NCBI GenBank assembly: GCA_963820625.1
Contig: CAWGAV010000034.1
Coordinates: 95 to 64,094 of the forward strand
DNA from: an uncultured delta proteobacterium
GTDB lineage: Bacteria; Desulfobacterota; BSN033; UBA1163
Length of the DNA stretch: 64,000 bases
Direction of reading: 5' to 3'
This document shows, piece after piece, positions 3,602-55,737 of the stretch (position 1 is the stretch's first letter; each line of letters opens with the position of its first letter). The notes under the pieces were generated by a model, which did not search any database, was not told the origin of the DNA, and worked only from the letters and a program-made list of their open reading frames with translations. The position numbers were made by a program, and so were the translations under genes.

Positions 3602-3748
3602 TTAAATCACCTCCTTTTTTGTGGGAAATATTTCCTTGGATGAAATGTTATTGAGCTACTTAAAATGATGCCCATCATAAACCATCGATATTTTAAAAGT
3701 CAAGTCTTTTATTTCAAAAATTTAATTCTTTTATTCCTCCATATTGAA

Positions 3749-4915: not shown

Positions 4916-4950
4916 ATCATTCCTTGTTTAAATTTTTTCGCTCCAATAAA

Positions 4951-5099
4951 CTCGAAATCCTAAGCTCCTGCCTGCGGTAGGCAGGGTAGGCAGGCGAAAT
5001 TCTAAACCTAATCAAAATCCATCTATCGAATGGTTAAAAAAGATAATTTATGTTTTGAATTTGGAGTTCTGATTATTCGGACTTGCTTAGAATTTCGAA
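4951..5099. repeat. About 150-bp intergenic element: terminal inverted repeats around a GCCTGC palindrome
   Basis: CGAAATCCTAAGC (4953-4965) is complementary to GCTTAGAATTTCG (5085-5097). The internal palindrome is CCTGCCTGCGGTAGGCAGG (4967-4985), followed by a repeated GTAGGCAGG. Confidence 0.7.
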
Positions 5100-5112
5100 T
5101 TTAGATATTATC

Positions 5113-5667
5113 TTACTCAACCGTTCTCTCAAGCTGAAGATGCTGAAGGTCATTGGGGTCGACCTGTAAAATAAAAAAGATTTTGTTCTCGATTCCGTAG
5201 ATCTCCTTTTGCAGTCGGTCTAAATAATCCATGGCCCTCTGATTTCCACCATATCTTTCTTTGAGGTCGTTAAACCTCTTCTCCAATGAAACAATCCGAT
5301 CGTGCATCACTCGTTTATCCGCATAATTCACAATTTCCTCTTCATAGACGGACAAGGGGTCTCCCTCCTTCCCTATCCAGATATGTTGCGCCACGACCTC
5401 CCCTACCCTTTCATACCCCATTCCTTTTAAGAGCTGAGAGCCTGTCTGGGCATGGTCTTCCTTTGTCTTGAGGCACTCTGTTTTCGTAAGATCATGCAAT
5501 AAAGAGGCTGCTTCCACTAAGCCGAGATCAACCCTTTGGCCTTTTTTATTCAATTCCACGGATAGATAAAGGGCTACTTTCGCCACCTCAAGGCTATGGG
5601 CGATAATGTTTTCTAACATTCCATATTGACCCATCATTCTCAAGCATTCTTCCCTGTTAGGGACCAT
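5113..5667 (-). CDS. HD-domain phosphohydrolase
   Basis: 184-aa ORF with H..HD motifs (IAHSLEV, LLHDLTK) and a later ADKRVMHD. Confidence 0.75.
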   Translation of the reverse strand: MVPNREECLRMMGQYGMLENIIAHSLEVAKVALYLSVELNKKGQRVDLGLVEAASLLHDLTKTECLKTKEDHAQTGSQLLKGMGYERVGEVVAQHIWIGKEGDPLSVYEEEIVNYADKRVMHDRIVSLEKRFNDLKERYGGNQRAMDYLDRLQKEIYGIENKIFFILQVDPNDLQHLQLERTVE

Positions 5668-5690
5668 CTATCTATTCCGCTCCTTGCTGA

Positions 5691-6206
5691 CTACCTTCTC
5701 AAAAAAACTCTCTTCTCTACGGAGTCTCTTTCGCCACCGCCTGGTCTTTTTGCTGGGTGGCCGAATGCCACAACAGCCATCAACTCTAAACCCTTACCCG
5801 CTCCTAATAATTCCCCCACCTTCTCTTTATTCTTTAAAATCTCCCCCAACCATACCCCTCCTAATCCCAAGGAATGAATGGTGAGAAGCATATTTTGAAT
5901 GCAGGCCCCTACTGCCTGGACATCCTTCGTTCTGTCATACACTCTGGAATGATCTAAAAAAACGACGATGCAAACCGGAGCCTCTTGAAGGATGGATCGA
6001 GAATGGGTGAAAGCGGCTAAGGACTCTTTCAATGCAGGGGCCTGGATGACGGCAAGCTTCCAGGGTTGGTTGTTCTTCCCAGAAGGTGCCCACAAACCTG
6101 ATTCAAGAATTTGGTTCACCGCTTCATCCGAAACCGCTTCCTTGGCAAACTGCCGGATGGACCTCCTCGTTCTGATGACTTCGATGACCTGATCCTTCGC
6201 TTTCAT
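5691..6206 (-). CDS. Nitroreductase family protein
   Basis: 171-aa ORF. The RRSIRQF motif near the N-terminus, PSGKNNQPW and the length fit the nitroreductase fold. Confidence 0.85.
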   Translation of the reverse strand: MKAKDQVIEVIRTRRSIRQFAKEAVSDEAVNQILESGLWAPSGKNNQPWKLAVIQAPALKESLAAFTHSRSILQEAPVCIVVFLDHSRVYDRTKDVQAVGACIQNMLLTIHSLGLGGVWLGEILKNKEKVGELLGAGKGLELMAVVAFGHPAKRPGGGERDSVEKRVFLRR

Positions 6207-6237
6207 CTTCCATCCTGTGCCTGAATCCTTAAAGAGC

Positions 6238-7380
6238 TCATGAATTTTTCAACTCCCCTTGTTTCTCCTTAAAGGGCAATGAAGGTTGGCTTTCAATCTG
6301 TTCCAATTTAAAACTGAATTTATCCAATCGTCTTCTTGCTTCCTCAAACTTATTCATCGCATTGCTGATATGTTTTCCCACCAGTTGAAAATCTTCTTGA
6401 AAGCCTCCGATGTCTTTTTTCAGACCAGACAGCAAGGCCTGTATCTTCTGAGCCTCTTTCTCAATCTGCAATCCCTTCAACCCCAGAACGATCACTTGGA
6501 GGTACGCATAGAAAGAGTTCGGGGAGACGGGGATCACTTTCTTGGTCAACGCATAATTTAAAACCCCTTTCTCCTCTCCAAACGACTCATCCTTGGTAAT
6601 TATTTCATAATAGACATTTTCTGCAGGAATATAGAGCAAGGCGAAATCATAGGTCCCCTCTTGGGGGAGAATATATTTGCTGGCAATGTCATCAATATGT
6701 TTTTTAACATCTCTATAAAAAATCTTTTTGAATGACTTTTTTTCTTCTTCCGTCTTACACTCAATGATCCGCCTAAAATTATCAAGGGGAAATTTCGAAT
6801 CGATTGGAACAAGTTTTTCTCCCAGCCTCACTACGGCATCGACCCTCTCTCCACTGGAAAATGGGTATTGAAGGCTGTAGAACTCTGGAGGAAGGATCTG
6901 GGATAACAATTCCCCTAAAAATTGCTCTCCCAGTCCCCCTCTCAATTTTGGAGGGCGGAGGATCTCTTGAAGGGTAGCAATGTTTTTACCTACTTCATGA
7001 ATTTGTTCACTGGTCTTAGAGAGCTCTCCGAGCTTTTCTCTCACCTCGCCGATCACTTGTCTTGCGGTGTCGAGCCGCTGACCGATCTGTCCACTGGAGT
7101 TCTGAAGTTGCTGGTTCACCATCTGGAGTTGCTGATTTACCTGTTCATTGATCGCTCGCAACTGTTCGGTAAGGAGAGAAATATTTTTATTAAGTCCATC
7201 GCTCATTTGTCCTCTTAATTGTTCCATCTGCTGTTGCATCATTGTCCACATCATGGGTGAGGACTGATCTGCTTTGAGCTCTTCGAGAATTTTCCTTCCC
7301 TTTCGCTCTATCAGGAAGTAAAGGGCCCCGCCTGCGATAACGATTAAGCCTATCAGTAAATAAAATAGTTCCATCTTCAT
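6238..7380 (-). CDS. rmuC: DNA recombination protein RmuC
   Basis: 380-aa ORF with an N-terminal TM helix, a long Q/E-rich coiled coil and a C-terminal RmuC-type region (ERVDAVVRL..LVPIDSKFPL, LLYIPAENVYYE). Confidence 0.88.
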   Translation of the reverse strand: MKMELFYLLIGLIVIAGGALYFLIERKGRKILEELKADQSSPMMWTMMQQQMEQLRGQMSDGLNKNISLLTEQLRAINEQVNQQLQMVNQQLQNSSGQIGQRLDTARQVIGEVREKLGELSKTSEQIHEVGKNIATLQEILRPPKLRGGLGEQFLGELLSQILPPEFYSLQYPFSSGERVDAVVRLGEKLVPIDSKFPLDNFRRIIECKTEEEKKSFKKIFYRDVKKHIDDIASKYILPQEGTYDFALLYIPAENVYYEIITKDESFGEEKGVLNYALTKKVIPVSPNSFYAYLQVIVLGLKGLQIEKEAQKIQALLSGLKKDIGGFQEDFQLVGKHISNAMNKFEEARRRLDKFSFKLEQIESQPSLPFKEKQGELKNS

Positions 7381-7400
7381 TCCCTGGGCCTATCCCTTAT

Positions 7401-8888
7401 TCAAGGATGTTGAATGATGAGATGTCCTTCCACCTTCTTATCTATTAGGTTAGTAATTAAGACATTCCAAACACTCTCTTTATGGACCTCTTCAAAATAA
7501 ATTGGAAATTCTACTTTGAGGGGGCTTTTCCCTGAGAGAGTGGGAATCCCCTTGATGGTTCCTGATTTTTTAAAAGAAAGCATGAGGGAGGAACTCCCCC
7601 CCTCCCATCTCGCCTCTGTCTTCACCTTTTCTGTTTGACCTTCCCCCTGAGGCCGGGGGGCAGAGAAAGAAAAGGAGAATTCTTCTCTTCCATGAGGCCC
7701 AATCTTGAACGGAAAGATAATGAATGTTCTTTCGAGGACATTATTTTCTAAACGGATATCATCGGAAGGTAATTTAGGAGAGATAGAAACTTTCACTTTT
7801 GAGATCCCAGCAATTCCAACGCGGTAAGGGGGGTCGATGTGATAACGGTTTCCAAAATTGGCCTTTAATGCCTCAGAAATGAAATGGTCGAATTCTGAAA
7901 TCTTTCGGTCGTTCACAAGGATGCGAATTCGAAAGGTAACGCCCTTCCGGAGATCAACTTCACCTCCATTGGAGAGGATGATCATGAGTTCTAAATCTTC
8001 TGTCAAATCTAAATCTTTCACCAAAATGTCCGGTCCAAAAGGCGCTCCATCCAATATCTTCTTCAGGCTGTTATTCCCTTCATTGGACTCCTTCACCCCG
8101 GAAGTAAAGTCGACATGGGCATCAATTTCATGTCGGCCAATAAGGGTTAAAGGGGTCGTCAAAGTGATGCTTCCTTTCACAGGAAGAGAGGACTGATCAG
8201 AAAGGCTTCCTAAGGTATAACTTCCTTTTAGGGATCCATCAACAATGATCTTCAGATTTCCTCCTCCTAAAGGAAGTGGGCTGTCTCCGATATTGGCAAT
8301 GGTTACTAATAGTTTCCTCTTGGGGTTGAGAAAAAGATCAGTAATGGTGAGGTCAGGAAGAAGAGGTTTGATCTCTAATTTTTCTTTCCCTAAAACTTTT
8401 ATAAAGACATTGTTCGCTCCATTTTCTTCGACCATCTGGTCCTCATTATCCACAACGGCCCGGACCTCGTGCTTCCCGACCAACTTGACCGGGGTGGTAT
8501 AGAGTACAAAACCTCCTGGCTGAAGAAAGGTTTGATCCGGGAGGTTTCCAAGAGAATCCCTCCATCTCAGATGACCATCTACATAAATCATCAAACTTCC
8601 AGTACGATAGGGAACGGGTCCTTTCCCAATATTCGAAATCACAACCTCAACCTCTCCTGTTTCACTCAAAGAGATATCCGAAATGATGAGGTCAGGGAGG
8701 AGAGCAGGTTGGGGTGGAGCGAGAGGAGGTTGAATAATGGCTTTCGTGGCGCAACTGAAGAGAAAGATAGAAAAGGCGAAGATCGCAATCGCCCCTTTGA
8801 ACATGAATGAAATTGAGCCTCCTTTGGAACCAAAATAACGCATCACACACCGAAATGCAAGAGATTTTTCCCTTTCCAATCTTGACAC
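7401..8888 (-). CDS. Exported or lipoprotein with three CARDB-like repeats
   Basis: Three repeat starts are visible: LPDLIISDISLSE..VVISNIGKGP, LPDLTITDLFLNP..VTIANIGDSP and GPDILVKDLDLTE..IILSNGGEVD. The likely true start is M29 (8804), giving the signal/lipobox FSIFLFSC. Confidence 0.65.
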   Translation of the reverse strand: MSRLEREKSLAFRCVMRYFGSKGGSISFMFKGAIAIFAFSIFLFSCATKAIIQPPLAPPQPALLPDLIISDISLSETGEVEVVISNIGKGPVPYRTGSLMIYVDGHLRWRDSLGNLPDQTFLQPGGFVLYTTPVKLVGKHEVRAVVDNEDQMVEENGANNVFIKVLGKEKLEIKPLLPDLTITDLFLNPKRKLLVTIANIGDSPLPLGGGNLKIIVDGSLKGSYTLGSLSDQSSLPVKGSITLTTPLTLIGRHEIDAHVDFTSGVKESNEGNNSLKKILDGAPFGPDILVKDLDLTEDLELMIILSNGGEVDLRKGVTFRIRILVNDRKISEFDHFISEALKANFGNRYHIDPPYRVGIAGISKVKVSISPKLPSDDIRLENNVLERTFIIFPFKIGPHGREEFSFSFSAPRPQGEGQTEKVKTEARWEGGSSSLMLSFKKSGTIKGIPTLSGKSPLKVEFPIYFEEVHKESVWNVLITNLIDKKVEGHLIIQHP

Positions 8889-36409: not shown

Positions 36410-36432
36410 ATAATGTCCCCGGTGTAGTCTTC

Positions 36433-36495
36433 AAAAAAAAACAGTATTCAATTTTCAAAGAGCGTGCAGGGTCAGAAATGGCTCTGCTTTTTTTA
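36433..36495. repeat. About 63-nt direct repeat, copy 1
   Basis: A-run..CAGTATTCAATTTTCAAAGAGC..TCAGAAATGGCTCTGCTTTTTT. The last 22 nt are identical to 38447-38468. Confidence 0.75.
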
Positions 36496-36746
36496 TCCCA
36501 TCAAGAATAAAGCCTTCTGAGACCAAAATCCCTGTGGTCTCCCGGAAGACCCCTTCCTCTTAATTTTTAGATCTTGCTTCACAATCCAACATTTCAAATC
36601 GAAATCGCTTATGGTCTATCAAGCTGATGATGAGTCAATAAATATTTATTCTTTGAGACAAAAAAGGTCACAATTCCCCCTTTATTAAAATTTCAATTTT
36701 CAAACAAATCTTTAAAAATCAATGGGTTTAAGCCTCCAATCCCTTT

Positions 36747-36761
36747 TGGCATTGAAATTGC
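36747..36761 (+). promoter_or_regulatory. Sigma54 (-24/-12) promoter
   Basis: TGGCAT-TGAAA-TTGC has the exact GG-N10-GC spacing of the TGGCAC-N5-TTGC consensus. It is about 35 nt upstream of the riboswitch-like leader. Confidence 0.6.
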
Positions 36762-36794
36762 TCTTAAAACAATAGGAGAAAACTAAAACCAACA

Positions 36795-36885
36795 TTGCCG
36801 ATAAAGCCAAACCACGAGTAATCGTGGGACGGAAAGCCACGGGTCCCGAGTTTTCGGGATAGCCGGGTTGCCGAAGCAAAAGGAA
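36795..36885 (+). promoter_or_regulatory. GEMM-I (c-di-GMP class I) riboswitch-like aptamer
   Basis: GCCAAACC-ACGA-GUAA-UCGU-GGGACGGAAAGCCACGGG...AGCCGGGUUGCCGA matches the remembered Vc2 core GGCAAACC-(GNRA hairpin)-GGGACGCAAAGCC.CCGG...GCGGGGUUACCGA. A PilZ gene lies downstream. Confidence 0.75.
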
Positions 36886-36893
36886 TTTTGCGG

Positions 36894-36927
36894 GGCCCGT
36901 GGTCTATATAACCATGGGCCTTTTTTT
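36894..36927 (+). terminator. Intrinsic terminator forming the riboswitch expression platform
   Basis: GGCCCGTGG (36894-36902) pairs with CCATGGGCC (36912-36920), followed by T7. GGGGCCCGTGG (36892-36902) can instead pair with CCACGGGTCCC (36837-36847) in the aptamer. Confidence 0.75.
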
Positions 36928-36945
36928 GGAGTTTCGAGAGGAATT

Positions 36946-37722
36946 ATGAGGTCAACCACAACAAGATGTATTTTTTATCGAGATTCGAAAGGTATTGGCA
37001 TGGGTAAGGGCCTCGGTTACTGCGATTTCGATGGATGCCAATCAGTTTGTGATGGAGATATCCAGTTCTGTGAAAAGCCAGATGTTATGAGGAAATATCT
37101 TTTGGATCAAAAGGGTAAGGAAGAAGGGGGTGGAATAAAAGAGGAATTACTAAATTTGAATAAATTAGAAAGCTTAAATATAAAATCTTCTAATTACCAA
37201 GTTCTTGTAGTGGATGATGAGGAACCAATGAGAAAGCTAATTGTGACTTTATTGTCCCAAAAGGGACATCAATGCGTAACCGTAAGTAATGGTCTTGAGG
37301 CGTTAGATAAAATTAGGGAAAACAAATTTGATGCCGTAATTGCTGACATTGTCATGCCCGAAATGGATGGGGTTGCCCTTACAAAAGAACTCTCTAAACA
37401 TTATCAAAGCCTTCCCGTGATGATAATGACAGGGCATACTGATGAATATTCAGCAGAAACTGCCATTGCTTCAGGTGCACGAGAATTTATTAATAAGCCA
37501 TTCTCAATTGAAGAATTTATCATACGATTTCATAAAATGATGCATGAACATGAAATCCTCTGCCAGATAGAGGCTAAAACTAAAGACATAGTTTTCAATT
37601 TACAAAGAGATTCAAATGAGAAGATCGAAAAACTCAAAGGGGAGATAGAGAATCTAAAAAACAAATTAACCTCTCTTTATGAATTAGGAGGAGCAGTTGG
37701 TTCTAAGAATCATCTCAGGTAG
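36946..37722 (+). CDS. Response-regulator receiver protein with a Cys-rich N-terminal domain and a C-terminal coiled coil
   Basis: The start was moved to ATG 36946 (RBS GAGAGGA); the listed 36868 start lies inside the riboswitch and terminator. The REC motifs are VLVVDDEE, AVIADIVMPEMDG, MIMTGH and INKPF. The N-terminus has 5 Cys (C-x17-C-x4-C-x3-C-x6-CEKPD). Confidence 0.8.
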   Translation: MRSTTTRCIFYRDSKGIGMGKGLGYCDFDGCQSVCDGDIQFCEKPDVMRKYLLDQKGKEEGGGIKEELLNLNKLESLNIKSSNYQVLVVDDEEPMRKLIVTLLSQKGHQCVTVSNGLEALDKIRENKFDAVIADIVMPEMDGVALTKELSKHYQSLPVMIMTGHTDEYSAETAIASGAREFINKPFSIEEFIIRFHKMMHEHEILCQIEAKTKDIVFNLQRDSNEKIEKLKGEIENLKNKLTSLYELGGAVGSKNHLR

Positions 37723-37738
37723 TGGTTAGGAGGATTCG

Positions 37739-38107
37739 ATGGAGAATTTAAATTATAATAAAGACAGAAGAAGATTTCCTCGGGTATTCATGGACTTACC
37801 CTTGGAATATCAAATTATGGATACCCCCAATGCTCATGGAGGACTGGTTGTTAATGTGAGTGAGAATGGCCTTCTAATTCATTCTTTAAAAGACATGCCG
37901 ATAGGAGCAAAACTAAATATTGCAGTTTTGTTCTCCAAGGCATTCGAATTGACCAACTTTGAAGTCTCAGCCGAAATTGTTTGGAAAGACATCCATTTGG
38001 ATGGAGATTGGGAGGGATATGAATATGGATTAAAATATATTCAGATCGGTAAGGATGACCATTGGAAGCTAAGACAACTTCTTAACCATGGAATCATGAA
38101 GGGGTGA
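37739..38107 (+). CDS. PilZ domain protein (c-di-GMP receptor)
   Basis: 122-aa ORF with RRRFPR (RxxxR) and NVSENG ((D/N)xSxxG) motifs at canonical spacing. Confidence 0.85.
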   Translation: MENLNYNKDRRRFPRVFMDLPLEYQIMDTPNAHGGLVVNVSENGLLIHSLKDMPIGAKLNIAVLFSKAFELTNFEVSAEIVWKDIHLDGDWEGYEYGLKYIQIGKDDHWKLRQLLNHGIMKG

Positions 38108-38187
38108 CCCGGTTTCATTTTTAAGGAGAGTCGCTTGAGCACATCAGTAAGATTCCAAATTAAACTCACTAGCAAAAAGGGAAGGCG

Positions 38188-38340
38188 ATGCGAATCAAAA
38201 TATTGAAAATGACATTGTTAGGAGTTGTTATTATCGCTTCCATTACTTTGATCCTTAAGCACCAGATAATTCAAGATTATTTCTTTACTCTGGGATGTCG
38301 TATCGTTGATATAATTAACTTGGTGATAAAAAACAGATAG
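38188..38340 (+). CDS. Possible 50-aa single-TM mini-protein; not in the supplied ORF track
   Basis: Hand translation gives MRIKILKMTLLGVVIIASITLILKHQIIQDYFFTLGCRIVDIINLVIKNR. The RBS AAGGGAAGG lies 3 nt upstream. Confidence 0.35.
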   Translation: MRIKILKMTLLGVVIIASITLILKHQIIQDYFFTLGCRIVDIINLVIKNR

Positions 38341-38404
38341 TAAAGCTGGGGAAAAAGGTTTTGAACGTTGGCTGATCTAGATAGGAGGGGGGTGGAAAGA
38401 AGTT

Positions 38405-38469
38405 TAAAAAATATCTGTATTCAGTTTTCAAAGAGCAAAGGTAGGATCAGAAATGGCTCTGCTTTTTTA
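38405..38469. repeat. About 63-nt direct repeat, copy 2
   Basis: A-run..CTGTATTCAGTTTTCAAAGAGC..TCAGAAATGGCTCTGCTTTTTT. See 36433-36495. Confidence 0.75.
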
Positions 38470-39776: not shown

Positions 39777-41105
39777 TTACTTCTTCGGATATCTGGGATG
39801 GGTCACTCCTTCGGTAGGTTTTCCAAAAGAAGCTGTATCCAGATTACGTAGAGGATGATTTTTCTCGTACATCGGCTTGAGTCTTTTCGCTCTTACTCCT
39901 TCTGGGTAGAACTTTGCAATAGCTGCCTGACTCCGGTCGAGAGATACATTTTCAATGACATAGTCAACCCTACCCAGACCATTTTCCACTCCTCCATAGA
40001 CCTGTTGCTCAATATCTTTACCTTTGATGAGGTTTAACTTTTTCGAACCCGGAGCAAGGGCATTAAATTCTTCTGCTTCAGAGTTAATCAGTCCTGGTGC
40101 TTCATTCATCAGGTCAATGCAAGCCTTATCCACAGCCACCGGGTCCAATGAGGCCAATACCCCAATACCATTCACAAAAGGTGTATCCGTCCATCCATAG
40201 CAGTCACAGGCAGGAGTGATATCCATAGCATAGTTAATGAAGAACATCCCCCCTGGTTCCTTCGTCATCATCGTGGCCAAAGCTGAGTCAGCAATTCGCC
40301 TACCCAGAGCTGGTAAATAATCGAACCGCTGAATACCATTAACGCCTGCCATATTCACACATAAGTTAGCACAAGCAAAGCAATAGACGCATGAATCCAA
40401 ATCAATCTCTAATCCTTTTTCTGTCACCTTGATTGACCCTTCCGGACAACATTCCTCACAGGTTTGCCACCACTCGCACTTTTGGCCAGGACAGAGCTCG
40501 GCTTTAATGACCGGCTTATCACCAGCCAGAGCACCGTGAAGGTTCATTTTGCCCCGTTTGCTCGCACAGCCGACACCTATATTCTTGATCGCTGCTCCAT
40601 AACCTCCAGCAGGGTGGCCTTTGAAATGAGCTACTGATAACAGAGCATCTGCATCCGCAATGGCCCGAGCAACAAACTGCTTGTTTAAATAGTTCCCTCG
40701 GCCTTTGAGATCAACAATCACATCGTCTGTCCCCAGCCAACCATCCGCAATGATAATCGGACAGCCCATCGAGGCATGGTTAAAACCATTGCGGTTAGCA
40801 GTCTCCAAATGGTCCAAAGCAAGGGTTCTACTGATCCATGGGTGGTAAGGCATTGTGGTCGTGTCAGTAACAAACGGCTTGCATCCTCGTTCTTTCAGGG
40901 CATCCACAAATGTCCGAACAATGATTGGTCTTAGGTAACCGACATTGTAGGCCTCCCCCATGTGAGTTTTAACAGCCACGATGTCACCGGGCTTAAGGTT
41001 GTCCATCCAACCCGAATGCTCAAGGATCTGGAGACCTTTAATGGCAGTGGATTCTAAAAACCTTCTTGACCGGGCATCCATAAACCAAACTGTTGTTTTG
41101 CTCAT
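39777..41105 (-). CDS. DUF362-like protein with an inserted 2x[4Fe-4S]-type Cys-rich segment
   Basis: 442-aa ORF. KTHMGE, FVTDTTT, AHFKGH and NIGVGCASKRGK are typical of DUF362 as I recall. The Cys clusters are CPGQKCEWWQTCEECCP and CVYCFACANLC. Confidence 0.7.
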   Translation of the reverse strand: MSKTTVWFMDARSRRFLESTAIKGLQILEHSGWMDNLKPGDIVAVKTHMGEAYNVGYLRPIIVRTFVDALKERGCKPFVTDTTTMPYHPWISRTLALDHLETANRNGFNHASMGCPIIIADGWLGTDDVIVDLKGRGNYLNKQFVARAIADADALLSVAHFKGHPAGGYGAAIKNIGVGCASKRGKMNLHGALAGDKPVIKAELCPGQKCEWWQTCEECCPEGSIKVTEKGLEIDLDSCVYCFACANLCVNMAGVNGIQRFDYLPALGRRIADSALATMMTKEPGGMFFINYAMDITPACDCYGWTDTPFVNGIGVLASLDPVAVDKACIDLMNEAPGLINSEAEEFNALAPGSKKLNLIKGKDIEQQVYGGVENGLGRVDYVIENVSLDRSQAAIAKFYPEGVRAKRLKPMYEKNHPLRNLDTASFGKPTEGVTHPRYPKK

Positions 41106-41291: not shown

Positions 41292-43316
41292 TTAATTCAT
41301 ATTTTTTAAAACAAACTCTGAGATATCCATCACAGTAATAGGGATCTTCTTTTTCCGGGCGTTGGAAAAAATAGTGCGGACGCACTGCTGGCAGGCAGTG
41401 ATTACCATGTCAGCTCCTGTGGCTTTGATCTCCTCGATCTTCGCTTGGGCTATTGCTGCCGAGAGGTCTGGACGCACCATCTCAAGATTACCACCCCCTC
41501 CGCAACATTTGCACTCTTCCCTACTTCCATTCATCTCCACCAATTCCACACCTGGAATGGCTTGTAGGATTTCTCGCGGGGCTTCATAAACTCCACTGGC
41601 CCTCCCGAGGTCGCAGGGGTCATGATAGGTAACCTTCGTCTTCTTCTCTTTGAAGGTGATTTTGCCTTCTTCAATCAACCTCTTGATGAATTGGGTAGAA
41701 TGAAAGATCTCGATTTCATTCTTACACCCCTCCATCCAGGTGTGGTAACAGGAGGGGCAAGCGAAGACAATCCTTTCTGCCCCCTTTTCTCTAACTTTTT
41801 GCAAGTTGTGTTGCATCAAAGCTTCAGCCTTTTCTTTCATCCCTGCGGCTATCAGAGGAAACCCGCAACACCACTCCTCTCCTCCCAGAAGGGTAAAATC
41901 GACCCCAGCTTTTTCCAAAATCTGGACCAAGGATTGAGGAATTCTCTTCGTCATTGGGAAATAGGCAGCCACACATCCAGTGAAGTAGACCACCTTCGCC
42001 TTTTCCCTTTCAAACCTATCCTTGGGGGCTTCGCCCAATGCCTGCACCCACATCGCCCTATCCTCGCTTGGCTCACCGATGATGTTATGCACCCTTTCCA
42101 AAGTCTCTGCCAAACGATCCATGCTCGGGGGGTATTCCCCTTTCTCAACCATGAACCTTCGAGCCGCAATCCTCGTATCTTTTGTATCGATAAACGAGGG
42201 ACATACGATCGAACACCTTCCGCATAATGTGCAGAGGTACGGGTACTCAGAATACTCTTTCAGCGTCTCCCCGGTTTTGGTGGGTCCGAAGAACATCCTG
42301 GTTAATCCGTATGCCTTCCTGATGAAAGATTTAAGGTTAGTATATAATCCTCCCATCGTGGTCTCTAATTGCTGGGTCTGTGCGTATACCGGACAGACAT
42401 CCACGCAGCTGCCACATTTCACGCAGGAATCGAGCGCGATGAGATCCTTAATAGATAGAGGAAGGGGAGTCTTTCTGGTTCCGGGCTTAAACGCCTCTTC
42501 GGGCATCAAGTTGATAAACATGACAACGGGTATGGTGATAATATGCCATAGCTTCTTATTATAAGGAATAAAACCAACCAGGGTACCAAGGAACAACCCG
42601 GCTACAGACCAAAGGGGATAGTTGATCGAGGACCACGGCAGCCCTAAAGGGGAAATGGCTTTACTCAGACCAAAGGATACGAACCAATATTGGGCCACAG
42701 AGTTTCGGAGGGAATAGGTTAGGATGCTTGTTGCCTCACAGAAAAAACGAAGGATGAACCAACCTCCTAACAGGTTCACTGCAACGATATCTCCCGTCGA
42801 TGTTTTAAACGTTACCGTTTTTGCCACGAATCTTCGGTAGATAGCGATGAACTCTCCCATCAAGATCATGGCTCCGAAAAGATCGAAGGAAATTGCGAAA
42901 AAGGCGTCGGAGGTGTTTAAGGACGGGGTAACCACATCACGAAAAAAATAAAAGTCGCAAAAAGGTGCATAGAAAATTCTAAGAAGGAATGATAGATGCT
43001 CTAATTGGGGCATCACATCCGCTTTGAGATGGCCTGCGATGAGGATCCCGGGATAACCGATCATGATCAAAACCTTCATCAACCATCTCAATTTATCCTG
43101 GCCGAAAAGTCTCCTCTGGAGAATACCGTCCAAAAACATTATCTCTATCAGCTTAACAATCTTGCCGCTGAAAACAGTTGAAAAGACACCCTTCACAAGC
43201 GCCCAAAAATCCCACTGCCCTCTCCAGTAAAGGAATAGTCTCGTGGCGAGACCCGTGAAAAAGACTACTGCCCCCAACATAAAAAAGATCACAAAGAGTG
43301 GATAACCAGTCACCAT
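41292..43316 (-). CDS. Membrane-integral HdrD/DsrK-like Fe-S oxidoreductase (NarI/DsrM-like TM domain fused to 2x[4Fe-4S] and two CCG domains)
   Basis: 674-aa ORF with an N-terminal multi-TM region of about 270 aa. It has CVKCGSCVDVCP and CTLCGRCSIVCP motifs. The CCG motifs are WCCGFP and CKCCGGGGN. Confidence 0.8.
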   Translation of the reverse strand: MVTGYPLFVIFFMLGAVVFFTGLATRLFLYWRGQWDFWALVKGVFSTVFSGKIVKLIEIMFLDGILQRRLFGQDKLRWLMKVLIMIGYPGILIAGHLKADVMPQLEHLSFLLRIFYAPFCDFYFFRDVVTPSLNTSDAFFAISFDLFGAMILMGEFIAIYRRFVAKTVTFKTSTGDIVAVNLLGGWFILRFFCEATSILTYSLRNSVAQYWFVSFGLSKAISPLGLPWSSINYPLWSVAGLFLGTLVGFIPYNKKLWHIITIPVVMFINLMPEEAFKPGTRKTPLPLSIKDLIALDSCVKCGSCVDVCPVYAQTQQLETTMGGLYTNLKSFIRKAYGLTRMFFGPTKTGETLKEYSEYPYLCTLCGRCSIVCPSFIDTKDTRIAARRFMVEKGEYPPSMDRLAETLERVHNIIGEPSEDRAMWVQALGEAPKDRFEREKAKVVYFTGCVAAYFPMTKRIPQSLVQILEKAGVDFTLLGGEEWCCGFPLIAAGMKEKAEALMQHNLQKVREKGAERIVFACPSCYHTWMEGCKNEIEIFHSTQFIKRLIEEGKITFKEKKTKVTYHDPCDLGRASGVYEAPREILQAIPGVELVEMNGSREECKCCGGGGNLEMVRPDLSAAIAQAKIEEIKATGADMVITACQQCVRTIFSNARKKKIPITVMDISEFVLKNMN

Positions 43317-43821: not shown

Positions 43822-44928
43822 ATGAATTTATCCATTCTAAAAGCTATTTTCGCCTCCATGGAACAGGGGGTCGTTTTTATCGATAATCAAAATCGGATCA
43901 CCTACTGCAACCCGGCAGCAGAGAAGATTCGAAACATTATGTTGGATCAAGTGTTGGATCAATCCATCTTGGATTGCCATCCTCAAAAGGCCCATCCAAA
44001 AGTCCTTCAAATTATTGAAGACTTGAAATCCGGTCAAGTCAAAGGACGCCACCGGATGAATATCCAGATGGTGCAGGGGAAATTCTATGATAATACCTAT
44101 TCTGCCGTCTGGGGTACAAAAAACAAATATCTGGGCGTCATCGTTATCACCCAGGAAGTCACACGACGAAAAAAGGCAGAGGATGAACTCAAAGAGGCAT
44201 TGAGAAAATTAGAGATCGCTAATGAAGAATTAAGACGGATCGATCAAATGAAAGATGATTTTCTCTCCAACATCAGCCATGAATTGAAAACCCCTATGAT
44301 CTCGGTGATGGGCTATATCGGAATGATCCTCAAGGAGAAGATTGGCTCATTGACCGAGCAGCAAAGAAAGTTTTTAGAGATATCCTATAAGAACCTCCGG
44401 AAACTTGGAAAGAACATTGACGACTTATTGGATTTGGCCGCACTGGGGATACAAAAAGAGTCCTGGATATTCGAACCGATCGATCTCGTTAAAGTAATCG
44501 AATTCTCATGCTCCACCGTTGAACCTTTGGCTCAGGAACACCAAATCCAACTGGATGCTCAGCTCCCTTCCGGACAGGTAAATATCACCGGGGTCGAGGA
44601 TAAGCTCAACCAGCTCTTCGATAATCTTCTCACCAATGCCATCAAATACAACCGTCAGGGAGGGAAGATCTGTGTAAGCCTTGATCATGATTCTGAATTT
44701 GTCTTCACCCGCATCACCGATACAGGGGTTGGAATCTCCCATCAATCTCTGAAGGAAGTTTTCACACGCCATTTCCAAGAAAAAACAAAACCCCTTGGAA
44801 ATGCCAAGGGGTTAGGAATTGGGCTCTCCCTCGTTCAGGAAATTGTTAAACTCCATCGAGGAGAGATCCAGATCGAGAGCGAGTTGGGCAAAGGAACCAC
44901 CTTCACGGTGATGCTTCCCAAAAAATAA
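43822..44928 (+). CDS. PAS-domain sensor histidine kinase
   Basis: 368-aa ORF with a PAS-like N-terminus, the H-box SHELKTPM and HATPase boxes (NAIKYN, GLGIGLS). Confidence 0.88.
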   Translation: MNLSILKAIFASMEQGVVFIDNQNRITYCNPAAEKIRNIMLDQVLDQSILDCHPQKAHPKVLQIIEDLKSGQVKGRHRMNIQMVQGKFYDNTYSAVWGTKNKYLGVIVITQEVTRRKKAEDELKEALRKLEIANEELRRIDQMKDDFLSNISHELKTPMISVMGYIGMILKEKIGSLTEQQRKFLEISYKNLRKLGKNIDDLLDLAALGIQKESWIFEPIDLVKVIEFSCSTVEPLAQEHQIQLDAQLPSGQVNITGVEDKLNQLFDNLLTNAIKYNRQGGKICVSLDHDSEFVFTRITDTGVGISHQSLKEVFTRHFQEKTKPLGNAKGLGIGLSLVQEIVKLHRGEIQIESELGKGTTFTVMLPKK

Positions 44929-50976: not shown

Positions 50977-51663
50977 ACGAAATCCATTCTAATTATTGAA
51001 GATGAAAAAGATATTGTTGATCTGATAGAGTACCATCTGAAGCAGTCTGGTTTTTCTGTCCTCACCGCCAGGGAGGGTGCTTCGGGCCTGGAAAGGGCAA
51101 AAAAGGAACATCCCGGTCTCATTATCTTAGACTTGATGCTTCCGGGGATGGACGGAAAAGATGTCTGCAGAGCACTCAAAGCAAATCCCCTCACTCAATC
51201 GATCCCTATCCTCATGTTGACCGCAAAGGTGGAAGAGATGGACCGAGTGATCGGGTTTGAGTTAGGGGCGGATGACTATGTCACCAAACCCTTCAGTCCG
51301 AGGGAATTGGTTTTAAGGGTGAAGGCCATTCTTCGAAGGAAGGAAGCCCCTTCTGAAGGGGAGAAAAAGATTCAAATAGGCGACCTTTTGATTGATGTTG
51401 ACAGGCATCAAGTTTTCATCAAAAAAAATTCCGTTCAATTAACCTCTACAGAATTTAAACTCCTTTTAGAACTTGCCTCTAAAAGAGGGCGAGTCCAAAC
51501 CCGAGAACAACTTCTGGATAAAGTTTGGGGATACACTTATGAAGGGTATGCCCGGACAGTGGATACACATATCCGCCGCTTAAGGGAAAAGCTTGGGCCT
51601 TTGGGAAATTCCATCGAGACCCTCCGAGGAGTGGGGTATCGATTCCGAGAGGAAGAAGAATGA
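50977..51663 (+). CDS. phoB: OmpR/PhoB-family response regulator with no canonical start codon
   Basis: The frame is open from 50974 (after a TGA): QTKSILIIEDEKDIVDL...ILDLMLPGMDG...LTAK..DDYVTKPF, then a winged-helix (VDTHIRRLREKL). ACG at 50977 sits 7 nt after AGGAGG. The stop overlaps the phoR start (ATGA). Confidence 0.8.
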   Translation, partial: TKSILIIEDEKDIVDLIEYHLKQSGFSVLTAREGASGLERAKKEHPGLIILDLMLPGMDGKDVCRALKANPLTQSIPILMLTAKVEEMDRVIGFELGADDYVTKPFSPRELVLRVKAILRRKEAPSEGEKKIQIGDLLIDVDRHQVFIKKNSVQLTSTEFKLLLELASKRGRVQTREQLLDKVWGYTYEGYARTVDTHIRRLREKLGPLGNSIETLRGVGYRFREEEE

Positions 51664-53045
51664 AACTCAGATTTCAATGGAAATTGATGATTCTCTTTCT
51701 CCTCCTCCTCCTGCTCCTCCTTATCGTTCAGGGATATTCTCATTACTTTCTTAAAAATCCCCTCTTTTTCTCCTCTCTCATCGGCCTTGTGATCGTCATC
51801 CCTTTTGCCTACCTATTGGCAAGGTCTCTCGCTCAGCCGATTTACGACCTAACCCAGAAGGCGATCCAGTTGGTTTCCAGTCATTTAGACCAAAGAGTGA
51901 CGATCGATTCCCGTGAAGAACTGCGAACGTTATCGAAAGCTATTGATGAGATTGGAATTCAACTCAGAAATAAGATTGATGAAATTTCTACAGAGAGGGA
52001 TTATTTTCAAACGATTCTTAAAGGTATGGCGGAAGGGGTATTGGTCGTAGATGAGAGGGGAAGGATCCTTGTGGCGAACGATGCCCTTCGTCAGCTCCTG
52101 TTCCTTCCCAGGAATGTGGCGAACCGAACACCTTTGGAGATCATCCGAAATGCAGAATTAGAGGAAGCCATTCGAAAAGTCATCCAGGAAGGGAATAGCA
52201 CCTCCTTCGAACTAAACCTTCCCTTGCCTTTAGGAAAAACCTTCGAGGTCAATGTGGTGGGAATTCTCCCCTCTCTTGAAGAGAGGGAGAGAGGGGACGA
52301 AGGGATTCGAGGAGCCATTGCGGTCTTTCATGATATCACTCGTTTGAAAGAGTTAGAAAAGGTCCGGCAGGATTTTGTGGCCAATGTCTCTCATGAATTG
52401 AGAACTCCATTGACGACCATCAAGGGTTATACGGAAACCCTTTTAGATGGGGCCCTCAAGGAAGAAGTGGCACCTCAATTTCTCCAGGTCATCCAGAAAC
52501 ATGCCGATCGGTTGACAAAAATTGTTGAAGACCTTTTGACGCTTTCAAAGATCGAATCCAAAGAGTTTTATCTGAAATGGGAACGTCTTCCCCTTTCAGA
52601 GCTGATCGATGACGTTTTGGATTTTGTCAAAGAGGCGGCAGAGAAGAAGAAAATATCCATCTCACGAAGCATCATTCCCCCTTCTCTTGAAGTGATGGGG
52701 GACCGAAGTTATTTAGAACAGGTGTTCATCAATCTTCTGGATAATGGCATCAAATATAGCCATGAGACAGGAGAGATTTCGATCTCTGCCCTTGAAGAAG
52801 GTCAAAGAGAGATTCGAGTTGTGATTAAAGACAATGCCATTGGAATTCCAAAAGAAGACCTTTCCAGAATTTTTGAACGTTTTTACAGGGTGGATAAAGG
52901 GAGGTCCCAAGAATTAGGGGGAACGGGTCTCGGGCTATCCATTGTCAAACATATTATTCAAGCCCATGGTGGAAGGGTGTGGGCAGAGAGTAAGCTCGGG
53001 GAAGGTTCAACCTTCTATTTCACCCTGCCGATACATATAAAATAA
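51660..53045 (+). CDS. phoR: PhoR-like sensor histidine kinase
   Basis: 461-aa ORF with 2 TM helices, HAMP, PAS, the H-box SHELRTPLT and the N/G boxes NGIKYS and GGTGLGLSIVK. Confidence 0.85.
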   Translation: MKLRFQWKLMILFLLLLLLLLIVQGYSHYFLKNPLFFSSLIGLVIVIPFAYLLARSLAQPIYDLTQKAIQLVSSHLDQRVTIDSREELRTLSKAIDEIGIQLRNKIDEISTERDYFQTILKGMAEGVLVVDERGRILVANDALRQLLFLPRNVANRTPLEIIRNAELEEAIRKVIQEGNSTSFELNLPLPLGKTFEVNVVGILPSLEERERGDEGIRGAIAVFHDITRLKELEKVRQDFVANVSHELRTPLTTIKGYTETLLDGALKEEVAPQFLQVIQKHADRLTKIVEDLLTLSKIESKEFYLKWERLPLSELIDDVLDFVKEAAEKKKISISRSIIPPSLEVMGDRSYLEQVFINLLDNGIKYSHETGEISISALEEGQREIRVVIKDNAIGIPKEDLSRIFERFYRVDKGRSQELGGTGLGLSIVKHIIQAHGGRVWAESKLGEGSTFYFTLPIHIK

Positions 53046-53781: not shown

Positions 53782-55737
53782 ATGAAAAAATGGTTGCTGG
53801 CTGATTTGCACATTCATTCAACCTTCAGCGATGGGTCCATGCCAGTGGAGGAGATTGTAGAGATTTATGGGGAAGCAGGTTTCGATGCGATCGCCATCAC
53901 CGACCATCTTTTTGATACCCAATCCCCGAGGAGTCTCGAAATCTGTGAAGAAGGCAAGTCAATTCAGGATGTGGAAACCTATTTTCGCAAGATCGAAGAG
54001 GTTTCGAGTTGGGCCAAGGCGGCCTATGATCTCTTGGTCATCCCAGGCATGGAGATTTGCAATCTGCTTGAAGATTACCATATCCTTGGTATTGATTTGA
54101 AGGAAGGCGTAAATCCAAATCAAGATGCAGAGGGCGTGATCAAAGAGATTCATCGTCAGGGCGGCCTTGCGATTGCTTCTCATCCCCATTTGAAGCTTTC
54201 CTACTTCTTACAAGGGGACACCGTATCTATTCAGAGGCATCCTCTCCATCTATGGAAATATCGGGAGAGATATGTAGGTAAAATTGATGCATGGGAGATT
54301 GCCAACCGCGAAGACCTCTTTCCCATTATCGGATTGGAACGTTTCCCTTTCTTGGCCAGTTCCGATTTTCATGAACGCCATCACCTCACCTCTTGGAAGT
54401 CACTCATCCTTGCCGAAAAGGATAAGGAAGATGTCAAGAAAGCTATTATTGAGAAGAGTGTTAGCCTCTTCTTCTTTAGAGATGGGATAGAAAGTAGTAT
54501 TCCGCCTCAGATCGAGAATCGTGAAGCATTTGGAGAAACGATTATGGACGACGAAAAGGATTGGGAGGGTCCCGGAAAAGCTAAGATCTTAATCGCCGAT
54601 GACGAAAGAGATCTTGTGGAGATGCTCTCTTATAACTTTCAGAAAAAAGGATATAAAACGATCAACGCCTACGATGGATTTGAGGCCTGGGAGAGAATCG
54701 AATCAGAAAACCCTGACCTCCTCATCCTCGACCTGATGATGCCAGGTATTGATGGCTGGGAACTCTGTCGCCTGATCCGTCGTAGTCAAAAAAAAGAGAT
54801 CAATGAGATGGGAATATTGATGCTCACCGCCAGAGCCATGCCAGAAGACAAGGTCTATGGCCTTGAGCTTGGGGCCGACGATTATCTCACCAAGCCTTTT
54901 TCTCTTCATGAATTGATCCTTCGAGTTGAAAAGCTGGTCGAAAAGAAAAGGGCCGTGTGTCAACTAAAAGAAGAAATGGATTCTCTTCATTCCTCGATCC
55001 AGAAGAAGGAAACGGACCTCAAAAGAGTCGTGCATGATCTAAAGAATCCCCTTCTCTCCATGGGGGCTTCCGCAAAAAGAATGCTCAGAAGGAGTCAGAA
55101 CGAAGAGGAAGTCAAGATTCTCAAAAACATCTATGACAGCAGTATCCATCTGACCCGATGGATAGACGATACATTGCTCTCTTCTGATCATTTGTCACAG
55201 AAAAATAAAGGGGAGATGAAAGAAATCGAAATACAGCCAATAGTTCAGCAAGCGATCGATTTACTAAAAGAGGCGAGCAGGGATAAGAATATCGAGATTC
55301 ATTTTGAGGCTTCACCTCCTATCCCTCCTGTTTACTGTCAAGACCAATTATTGTTACGAGCCATCGAAAACCTTTTAAGTAATGCTCTGAAGTTCACACC
55401 GCGAGGTGGAAAGATAGAGGTAGCAGTAACACCCTACATCGGATGGAAAGATGGAGGGATCGTTGAAATTTCCATTAAAGATACAGGAATCGGAATTGGG
55501 GAAGATGAAATCGAAAGGATTTTTGAGCCTTTTTATAGGGGAAGGAATAGTTCTGTGGAGGCCGGCACTGGTTTGGGCCTTTCGTTCGTCAAAGAAGTAG
55601 TGGATTTACATGGAGGCAGGATATTGGTTCAGAGCGAGCCTCAAAAGGGGAGCACGTTTTCCATCCTGTTGCCCATTGGGAAATGTTCAAATTATGAAAG
55701 TAATGTGCATTCGACATTCTTAAAGGGATCTTTGTAA
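53782..55737 (+). CDS. PHP phosphoesterase domain - receiver - HisKA - HATPase fusion protein
   Basis: 651-aa ORF. PHP: DLHIHSTFSDG..AITDH..ASHPH. REC: ILIADDERD..LILDLMMPGIDG..LTAR..DDYLTKPF. H-box: VHDLKNPL. ATPase: NALKFT and GTGLGLSFVK. Confidence 0.85.
   Translation: MKKWLLADLHIHSTFSDGSMPVEEIVEIYGEAGFDAIAITDHLFDTQSPRSLEICEEGKSIQDVETYFRKIEEVSSWAKAAYDLLVIPGMEICNLLEDYHILGIDLKEGVNPNQDAEGVIKEIHRQGGLAIASHPHLKLSYFLQGDTVSIQRHPLHLWKYRERYVGKIDAWEIANREDLFPIIGLERFPFLASSDFHERHHLTSWKSLILAEKDKEDVKKAIIEKSVSLFFFRDGIESSIPPQIENREAFGETIMDDEKDWEGPGKAKILIADDERDLVEMLSYNFQKKGYKTINAYDGFEAWERIESENPDLLILDLMMPGIDGWELCRLIRRSQKKEINEMGILMLTARAMPEDKVYGLELGADDYLTKPFSLHELILRVEKLVEKKRAVCQLKEEMDSLHSSIQKKETDLKRVVHDLKNPLLSMGASAKRMLRRSQNEEEVKILKNIYDSSIHLTRWIDDTLLSSDHLSQKNKGEMKEIEIQPIVQQAIDLLKEASRDKNIEIHFEASPPIPPVYCQDQLLLRAIENLLSNALKFTPRGGKIEVAVTPYIGWKDGGIVEISIKDTGIGIGEDEIERIFEPFYRGRNSSVEAGTGLGLSFVKEVVDLHGGRILVQSEPQKGSTFSILLPIGKCSNYESNVHSTFLKGSL

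Follow-up and report, generated by a model that had tools for sequence, protein, structure and literature searches.

OFF-type class-I cyclic di-GMP (c-di-GMP) riboswitches and sigma-54 promoters with integration host factor (IHF) sites are already known. The C. difficile Cd1 element, upstream of the flagellar operon, is an OFF-type c-di-GMP-I terminator switch, the GEMM-Ib riboswitches of Geobacter that sense 3'3'-cyclic GMP-AMP (3'3'-cGAMP) typically carry an A at position 20, and glnAp2, nifH and Pu exemplify the classical enhancer-dependent sigma-54 promoters in which an IHF site intervenes. Bc1 of B. thuringiensis is another OFF-type c-di-GMP-I switch, with a long expression platform and two terminators (PMC11218506), and many GEMM RNAs follow an ON design in which the terminator overlaps the 3' side of helix P2 (PMC1950547); the Geobacter 3'3'-cGAMP GEMM-Ib riboswitches are cited in PMC5473149. 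Here we analysed a 64-kb stretch of DNA from an uncultured delta proteobacterium (Desulfobacterota), hereafter the window, in which positions 36747–38340 appear to hold a regulatory cassette complete in itself, in which one checkpoint follows another, a predicted sigma-54 promoter and a predicted c-di-GMP OFF riboswitch, in front of genes for an orphan response regulator and a PilZ protein. Taken as a whole, this chain of sigma-54 initiation and c-di-GMP-dependent shut-off is in our judgement reasonably probable. All positions are those of the whole window, features given without a strand sign lie on its forward (+) strand, and counts based on patterns are lower bounds set by the regular expressions chosen. 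Related loci are denoted by L numbers and proteins by P numbers.

When the whole window was searched with Rfam, the sole match at the gathering threshold was an aptamer of the c-di-GMP-I (GEMM-I) class at 36797–36876 (clan CL00126; 70.9 bits, E 9e-15). The top clan model was RF03167 (c-di-GMP-I-GGC; gathering score 59), and two further c-di-GMP-I models of the clan matched at the same place with lower scores, at or above their own thresholds. An earlier sequence-only reading of this DNA had recognised a GEMM-I-like riboswitch here; the class was borne out far above the gathering score and the core strings were as claimed, and only the family proposed for the check, RF01051, gave way to RF03167 as the best model. 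The core from 36806 reads GCCAAACC / ACGAG-UAAU-CGUG / GGGACGGAAAGCCACGGG, and alignment to the Rfam consensus structure places hairpin P1b at 36812–36827 with a GUAA loop and P2 at 36835–36869, so that the P1a/P1b hairpin with its GNRA loop and P2 are both present, backed by covariation. In the numbering of the V. cholerae Vc2 aptamer, which we take from the Rfam consensus and secondary papers, the ligand-contact residues G20, A47 and C92 are all found, as G36806, A36833 and C36871 of the Rfam alignment. G20 touches the G-alpha of the ligand and C92 pairs with G-beta (PMC5888326), and A47 is stacked between both guanines (PMC9049102). Since all three are canonical, the pocket would be of the canonical c-di-GMP type and not of the A20 cGAMP type; G36806, which the sequence-only reading had singled out for inspection, is not the A of 3'3'-cGAMP GEMM-Ib RNAs. 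Furthermore, the aptamer is intact and its score is on par with those of the best relatives. These results indicate that the element is almost certainly a real class-I aptamer and that c-di-GMP is its likely ligand.

A rival reading is a real aptamer with another ligand, which might be 3'3'-cGAMP, a different dinucleotide or whatever the GGC variant binds; the C:G pair at Vc2 positions 21 and 46 would then mark a subclass of altered specificity. RF03167 is the best model both here and in most relatives. The GGC variant reportedly stems from the 2017 variant-riboswitch screen of Weinberg et al., and its ligand is not known to have been established; we take 'GGC' in the sense of the model consensus. 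The window aptamer scores above the RF03167 gathering score, but the consensus, ACGCGAAG, has a G at model position 37 (= Vc2 A47), where the window reads ACGGAAAG with A36833. Lacking the defining G47, the window aptamer should not be classed as a GGC variant. Aptamers with the same core in L076, L053 and L083 were assigned to RF01051 with 54–64 bits (gathering score 35). Because same-core sequences go to RF03167 or RF01051 according to the remaining sequence, clan competition is the best account of the GGC label; that related covariance models pick up the same RNAs has been reported before (PMC9943018).

What sets this aptamer apart is the neighbouring pair. Model pair 11:36 (Vc2 G21:C46) is C36807:G36832, flagged as compensated by cmscan, so that the compensatory G:C to C:G swap proposed in the sequence-only reading indeed falls on that pair. 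The flip is common. An exact-pattern scan with one genome per species gave at least 120 stretches with GCCAWACC...GGGACGGAAAGCC, mostly in Thermodesulfobacteriota, and also in Campylobacterota, Gammaproteobacteria, Acidobacteriota, Planctomycetota and further phyla. A set of 90 distinct subtype sequences shows 4–6 pair types at every one of the four inner P1b pairs and covariation at several P2 pairs, with 78–100% canonical pairing; G20 is present in 90/90, a figure set by the search pattern. This covariation indicates that the flipped-pair RNAs are a functional structured family and no chance resemblance. We also observed class-I aptamers of 130–135 nucleotides (nt) in L181 (2766–2895), L154 (2759–2893) and 17 more loci, in which an insert of ~50 nt with two hairpins lies exactly between GGGACG and GGAAAGCC (positions 45/46), beside the ligand pocket; promoter and platform are otherwise the same, and the RF01051 score is just 36–45 bits. 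On a bolder reading, the flipped-pair subtype, including these members, may have a shifted ligand specificity: the flip is a constant feature of a large and coherent subtype, many relatives carry the insert exactly between 45 and 46, and G21 and C46 are among the contributors to ligand binding in simulations (PMC9049102). Against another ligand for the window aptamer, besides its canonical contact residues, the missing G47 and the assignment of identical cores to RF01051, stand the preservation of pairing by the flip and the nature of the PilZ and GGDEF cargo, which is c-di-GMP machinery. We therefore regard another ligand as unlikely.

Downstream of the aptamer, a terminator scan independently detected an intrinsic terminator at 36892–36927, with a 12-bp stem (36892–36922) and a U7 run. 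Its 5' arm begins with GGGGCCCGTGG (36892–36902), complementary to CCACGGGTCCC in the aptamer (36837–36847), and its 3' side contains CCATGGGCC (36912–36920), followed by T7 at 36921–36927; taken in full, the arm 36892–36903 is complementary to the P2 5' strand 36836–36847, which would form an antiterminator. Between aptamer and terminator lies a small hairpin, GCAAAAGGAAUUUUGC (36876–36891), which is present in minimum free energy (MFE) folds and which related leaders retain, with compensatory base changes. The 5' arm of this hairpin overlaps the P1 3' strand (UUGC/GCAA, with GCAA common to both), and as part of the antiterminator fold the hairpin would stabilise that fold. The alternative duplex was computed at -28.4 kcal/mol versus -20.6 kcal/mol for the terminator hairpin. 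For the transcript 36773–36903, which stops before the terminator 3' arm, the MFE fold is the antiterminator (-47.1 kcal/mol); the aptamer-only transcript to 36880 has an MFE of -34.2 kcal/mol; and for the transcript to 36930 the MFE fold is aptamer plus terminator (-62.8 kcal/mol versus -53.4 kcal/mol with the antiterminator forced). The leader as a whole folds with z = -4.4 relative to shuffles. The mutually exclusive terminator and antiterminator pairings, first noticed in the sequence-only reading, were thus both recovered by computation. The layout is also conserved: an anti-P2 segment followed by a T-run was found in 52/62 distinct related modules, and each of the two platform designs among the relatives has a segment complementary to GCCACGG before the T-run.

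These features speak to the direction of the switch. The leader might instead be no c-di-GMP OFF terminator at all, but a site of constitutive termination or attenuation, a switch of the ON type or a relic in decay, control being left to the promoter only. Thermodynamically, the full leader favours the terminator fold anyway, aptamers are decayed or interrupted in L008/9, L132 and L216, and the commonest described terminator design of GEMM RNAs is the ON type that overlaps the P2 3' side (PMC1950547). On the other hand, the window aptamer is not decayed and scores as high as its best relatives, its terminator does not overlap the aptamer and has a 5' arm that pairs with the 5' side of P2, which is the OFF geometry, and the complementarity recurs in each of two independent platform designs. 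A terminator whose 5' arm can pair, as an exclusive alternative, with a strand of the aptamer gives the element the make-up of an OFF switch. We consider the OFF direction likely, and a leader that does not act as such a switch improbable.

The predicted sigma-54 promoter, TGGCAT-N5-TTGC, lies at 36747–36761 (TGGCATTGAAATTGC), with a start predicted near 36773. GG of the -24 and GC of the -12 element are present with exact spacing (TGGCATTGAAATTGCT at 36747–36762), as the sequence-only reading had it. This pattern has one match in the window versus 0.22 expected, and at least one match occurred in 18/100 shuffles; by itself such a single match is weak evidence, and it is conservation that turns it into strong evidence for a promoter. 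TTTGGCAY-N5-TTGCT does not vary among five loci that carry homologous genes and keeps a constant distance to the aptamer, while the flanks have diverged. An alignment of 18 loci with both sigma-54 motif and aptamer, including loci with unrelated cargo, revealed three conserved blocks, namely the dyad GWGACAAAAAA-GTCAC, an IHF-like AATCAA-N4-TT and the -24/-12 core, the last of these invariant throughout as TTGGCAY-N5-TTGCT. In the window, the dyad GAGACAAAAAAGGTCAC is found at 36655–36671, ~90 nt upstream of the -24 TGG; it is unique in the window (0.08 expected), resembles an enhancer and is the presumed site of a bacterial enhancer-binding protein (bEBP). Between dyad and promoter, AATCAATGGGTT at 36717–36728 fits the IHF pattern WATCAA-N4-TT, and we infer the function of this IHF-like site by analogy with the layout of classical sigma-54 promoters. 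The IHF-like site lies at -30/-31 from the TGG in 43/64 distinct modules and at -29 in one more (44/64), compared with 0.9% in shuffles, and the dyad lies at -90/-91 in 24 of the 64 by a strict regular expression (shuffles 0.5%). The predicted promoter thus has a conserved position in related loci together with predicted upstream sites. In addition, a -24/-12 motif was found within 420 nt upstream of 65/104 gene copies encoding the four-cysteine domain described below (Cys4), and 36–96 nt upstream of the aptamer in 16/120 unrelated genome loci of the flipped-pair subtype, among the matches listed. No bEBP or rpoN signature (GAFTGA, ELFGH, RpoN-box) was detected in any frame of the 64-kb window, in agreement with the earlier remark that no bEBP is encoded nearby; bEBP genes adjoin related cassettes in L131 and L133. 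Collectively, these observations make a sigma-54 promoter very likely. That transcription starts instead from an ordinary sigma-70 promoter, TTGGCA-16-AACAAT (36746–36773), or elsewhere, with TGGCA/TTGC coincidental or serving another protein, is a poor alternative, since the site, although it appears in a sigma-70 scan with 9/12 matches and although the lone -24/-12 match is not significant by itself and the window lacks a bEBP or rpoN gene, has a -10-like hexamer that relatives do not preserve; the exactly spaced GG and GC, by contrast, never vary there and recur at constant distance with positioned IHF-like and dyad sites in 64 distinct modules, and sigma-70-like sites in the region are no commoner than in shuffles (5 versus 7.4 expected).

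The first gene behind the leader (36946–37722; ribosome-binding site GAGAGG at 36936–36941) encodes an orphan response regulator of 258 aa. It consists of a Cys4 domain (~residues 5–50), a linker, a receiver domain (REC; residues 86–192) and a long C-terminal helix (188–248). The receiver matches PF00072 (1e-29; 103 bits versus a cut-off of 30), and D90, D91, D134, T162 and K184 are invariant or nearly so in homologues, in keeping with the canonical receiver recognised at first reading. AlphaFold2 (AF2) gave a confident model for the receiver and the stalk helix, and low values for residues 1–60 (predicted local distance difference test, pLDDT, 48–72); a structure search with the full model returned receivers only (template modelling score 0.9). 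More than 100 full-length homologues are found in metagenomes, and the receiver shares 87% identity with its counterpart in the REC-GGDEF protein P0084. A TTG-start open reading frame (ORF) at 36868–37722 reaches into the leader, and the same is seen for P0001 (290 aa).

The N-terminal domain had been described as an unrecognised five-cysteine domain. It does lack a family match, but four cysteines, not five, are conserved: C8, C26, C35 and C42 (C-x17-C-x8-C-x6-C) are nearly invariant, and C31 is replaced by H, N, S or D in relatives. For residues 1–60, no Pfam match up to E = 10 and no NCBIfam match was obtained, and a profile search for sequence relatives in the PDB gave none (best E 0.65, which is noise). 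AF2 prediction of the domain alone from 69 sequences was of low confidence (mean pLDDT 49.8). A metal or an Fe-S cluster is the probable ligand of the Cys4 domain and would add a redox or metal input.

We then compared the genes that the module accompanies. The same RNA is found 5' of homologous genes in L001, L002, L005 and L006. Among 80 metagenome loci encoding Cys4, a flipped-pair aptamer was found in 26 by pattern, and Rfam detected a class-I aptamer directly upstream in a further 19 of 40 pattern-negative loci screened, giving a total of at least 45/80 Cys4 loci with a class-I aptamer; six loci are too short to judge. Cys4 also occurs in other protein contexts. A Cys4 profile search gave 68 clusters of stand-alone Cys4 proteins of 54–94 residues, often encoded as tandem genes (74 + 66 residues). 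Cys4-REC-GGDEF proteins are P0105, P0107 and P0108, with the GGDEF domain of P0105 confirmed, and single-ORF Cys4-PilZ fusions are found in L159 (90–575), L167 (560–1608) and L168 (3001–4043; 176 and 222 aa), with a second PilZ gene 3' of the fusion in L167 and L168. A PilZ gene follows the Cys4 response regulator gene in L001, L138 and L140 and a bare cassette in L130, so that PilZ is a frequent, not a constant, partner of the cassette. Because at least 45/80 loci carry the aptamer and Cys4 is fused to REC, GGDEF and PilZ, the Cys4 family appears to be linked to c-di-GMP. A further step, which we put forward as tentative and rather doubtful, is that Cys4 might be an unrecognised component of c-di-GMP signalling, a metal or Fe-S redox sensor or an adaptor, whose genes, with a few others, would make up a dedicated regulon in Thermodesulfobacteriota and neighbouring phyla, driven by one portable cassette of enhancer, IHF site, sigma-54 promoter and c-di-GMP OFF riboswitch.

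The related loci also differ in how much of the cassette they keep. In L007 (2917–4726), two tandem Cys4-receiver paralogues each have their own sigma-54 promoter and IHF-like site, and the aptamer is reduced to the stub AATAAAGCCAAAC, a loss of the riboswitch with retention of the promoter. In L132 (3740–4090; also in L133 and L134), the cassette stands before a REC-GGDEF gene and carries GC-rich palindromic inserts, CCTGCC...GGCAGG, at three places; the L132 leader precedes P0084, the Cys4 coding part is gone, and P0084 owes its first ~60 residues to read-through of the riboswitch leader. L216 (3480–4160) holds a decayed cassette with a promoter, a mutated aptamer, a deleted receiver gene, the C-terminal third of PilZ and an intact 50-codon ORF. 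Traces of mobile elements were observed near some cassettes, namely a group II intron domain just 5' in L005 (3434–3509), an int-alpA RNA in L009 (740–808) and a serine recombinase gene directly 3' of the receiver gene in L002–L004 (~4930–5675). L027 (uncultured delta proteobacterium MFD04408.bin.2.84; 298–1012 and 3746–7993) has purF-region genes in common with the window at 70–73% nucleotide identity, and its cassette precedes two small stand-alone Cys4 genes in place of a receiver-PilZ pair, which suggests an exchange of cargo at a syntenic site between the two.

The second gene (37739–38107) encodes a predicted single-domain PilZ protein of 122 aa, which matches PF07238 (5e-11; 43 bits versus a cut-off of 22.5). 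The intact RxxxR and (D/N)xSxxG motifs named at first reading are present as RRFPR and NVSENG. Further downstream, a 50-codon ORF (38188–38340) would encode an N-terminal hydrophobic helix followed by a conserved QDYF...LGCR.VDIINLVIK. It had been listed as a possible 50-aa transmembrane peptide. The ORF exists and has four homologue clusters, all of 50–51 aa with 76–80% identity, but evidence for coding is weak: no purifying selection was seen, with near-neutral substitutions (4 synonymous, 11 non-synonymous) relative to the decayed cassette L216. L001, which has the closest cassette (92% identity across 36640–38083), lacks the ORF, and searches of domain libraries gave no family match. We rejected in part the notion that it is pure noise, as the homologues keep its length; a small membrane protein is possible.

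The cassette is bracketed by a direct repeat of ~65 nt, ..GTATTCAGTTTTCAAAGAGC..GCAGGGTCAGAAATGGCTCTGC plus a T-run, with copies 85–96% identical (repeat families D1, D2 and D4). The right copy (38403–38468) is a terminator-like element that closes the cassette, and in the left copy (36430–36493) the terminator scan detected a hairpin and T-run. The same element was also observed 3' of PilZ in L001 (4156–4197) and within the leader of L006 (~3900–3960). It may represent a terminator used in common, a small repeat element or a scar left by recombination. A mobile islet inserted between duplicated terminators was considered; the repeat is real, but no empty site was found, and no recombinase was found in the window. 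Elsewhere in the window, possible partners of the receiver are two PAS histidine kinases, 43822–44928 (+) and 51660–53045 (+), and a PHP-REC-HisKA hybrid, 53782–55737 (+). The chromosomal surroundings are of anaerobe type, with DUF362 at 39777–41105 (-) and an HdrD-like CCG/4Fe-4S protein at 41292–43316 (-); DUF362 and Fer4 genes also lie beside the related cassette in L132.

Based on these features, we propose the following mechanism. Transcription from the sigma-54 promoter at 36747–36761 would begin near 36773 and need an enhancer-binding ATPase. This activator, a bEBP encoded elsewhere, would bind the dyad at 36655–36671, with the DNA bent at the IHF-like site at 36717–36728. The first ~100 nt of the transcript would then fold into the class-I c-di-GMP aptamer (36797–36876). 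With ligand bound, P1 and P2 would be locked and the strand GGGGCCCGUGGU left free to form the terminator (36892–36927), so that transcription would stop before the genes; with no ligand, the same strand would invade P2 and pair with GCCACGGGUCCC, forming the antiterminator and allowing read-through. Expression of the operon would therefore require both a switched-on activator and low c-di-GMP. Its products would be a phosphorylatable orphan receiver with a Cys4 domain and a dimerisation stalk and without an output domain, a PilZ c-di-GMP receptor and perhaps a membrane peptide of 50 aa. In sister genomes the same cassette stands before Cys4-REC-GGDEF or REC-GGDEF cyclases, where the OFF switch would provide negative feedback on c-di-GMP synthesis. 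The GGDEF-less regulator of the window would most likely modulate the same phosphorelay or cyclase, as a partner, a decoy or a phosphate sink, and PilZ would be pre-loaded at low c-di-GMP, ready to read the next rise.

Several points weigh against this proposal. The top Rfam model is an orphan variant, and P1 comprises just 3–4 bp. The full-length MFE structure is the terminator fold with or without ligand, and switching must therefore be kinetic if the leader works as proposed. The 64-kb window yielded no bEBP or rpoN signature, and the -24/-12 element shares its site with a weak sigma-70-like -35/-10 pair. Some relatives keep the promoter with the aptamer lost or disrupted (L007, L008/9 and L132), so that the riboswitch would be dispensable in some lineages. 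Finally, c-di-GMP shutting off its own PilZ receptor is no obvious design.

The individual parts of the cassette (GEMM-I aptamer, intrinsic terminator, sigma-54 promoter, receiver and PilZ) are all of known kind, and the riboswitch taken alone is an ordinary new member of its class. In the literature that we searched, we did not find described a conserved coupling of a sigma-54 promoter to a GEMM-I riboswitch as one portable cassette, a link of such a riboswitch cassette to the Cys4 domain family, or Cys4 fusions to c-di-GMP modules. The sequence-only reading had pointed to three layers of control on a small islet, with sigma-54 initiation, the leader RNA and a PilZ protein for the same messenger. 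All strings and coordinates it gave proved correct on re-reading, and the layers held up; the islet is not singular, but one instance of a module that recurs before varied cargo genes. Promoter architecture and riboswitch move together as one conserved cassette, seen in 64 distinct copies. The cassette would be a hard-wired gate of the form 'activator ON and c-di-GMP LOW' and a natural case for combined control of initiation and elongation. It also marks the Cys4 family as c-di-GMP-linked, a testable lead to second-messenger biology in uncultured anaerobes. In addition, the filing of RNAs without the GGC-defining nucleotide as GGC by clan competition matters for counts of variants taken from automated Rfam annotation.

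Compared with V. cholerae Vc2 (RF01051), the window aptamer has the same two hairpins, a GNRA-capped P1b and P2, the cores GCAAACC / GGGACG.AAAGCC / GGGUUNCC, the residues G20, A47 and C92, and a leader position before signalling genes. It differs from Vc2 in the flip of G21:C46 to C:G and in an A at G19, and from canonical GEMM-I RNAs in its separate downstream terminator, an antiterminator formed with the P2 5' strand and predicted sigma-54 transcription. The sequences and lengths of P1b and P2 are nearly identical to those of the RF03167 GGC variant, but the window has A at the A47 position and the change in the neighbouring pair instead. With respect to Geobacter GEMM-Ib, fold and broad lineage (the former Deltaproteobacteria) are the same, and position 20 differs, being G36806. 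As in Cd1 and Bc1 of the Firmicutes, the ligand is expected to favour an intrinsic terminator and so to lower downstream expression; unlike these, the cassette belongs to another phylum, has other cargo and would use a sigma-54 rather than a sigma-70 or sigma-D type promoter, and, compared with Bc1, it has one terminator and a short helper hairpin. The promoter has the TGGCAY-N5-TTGCW core of the glnAp2, nifH and Pu type, with an IHF-like site ~30 nt and a dyad ~90 nt upstream, but a riboswitch leader follows immediately and the activator is not encoded nearby. Finally, compared with the REC-stalk-GGDEF proteins WspR, PleD and DgcR, the response regulator has a receiver very close to that of a REC-GGDEF relative and a long helix continuing alpha-5, whereas it ends after the stalk without a GGDEF domain and carries an added N-terminal Cys4.

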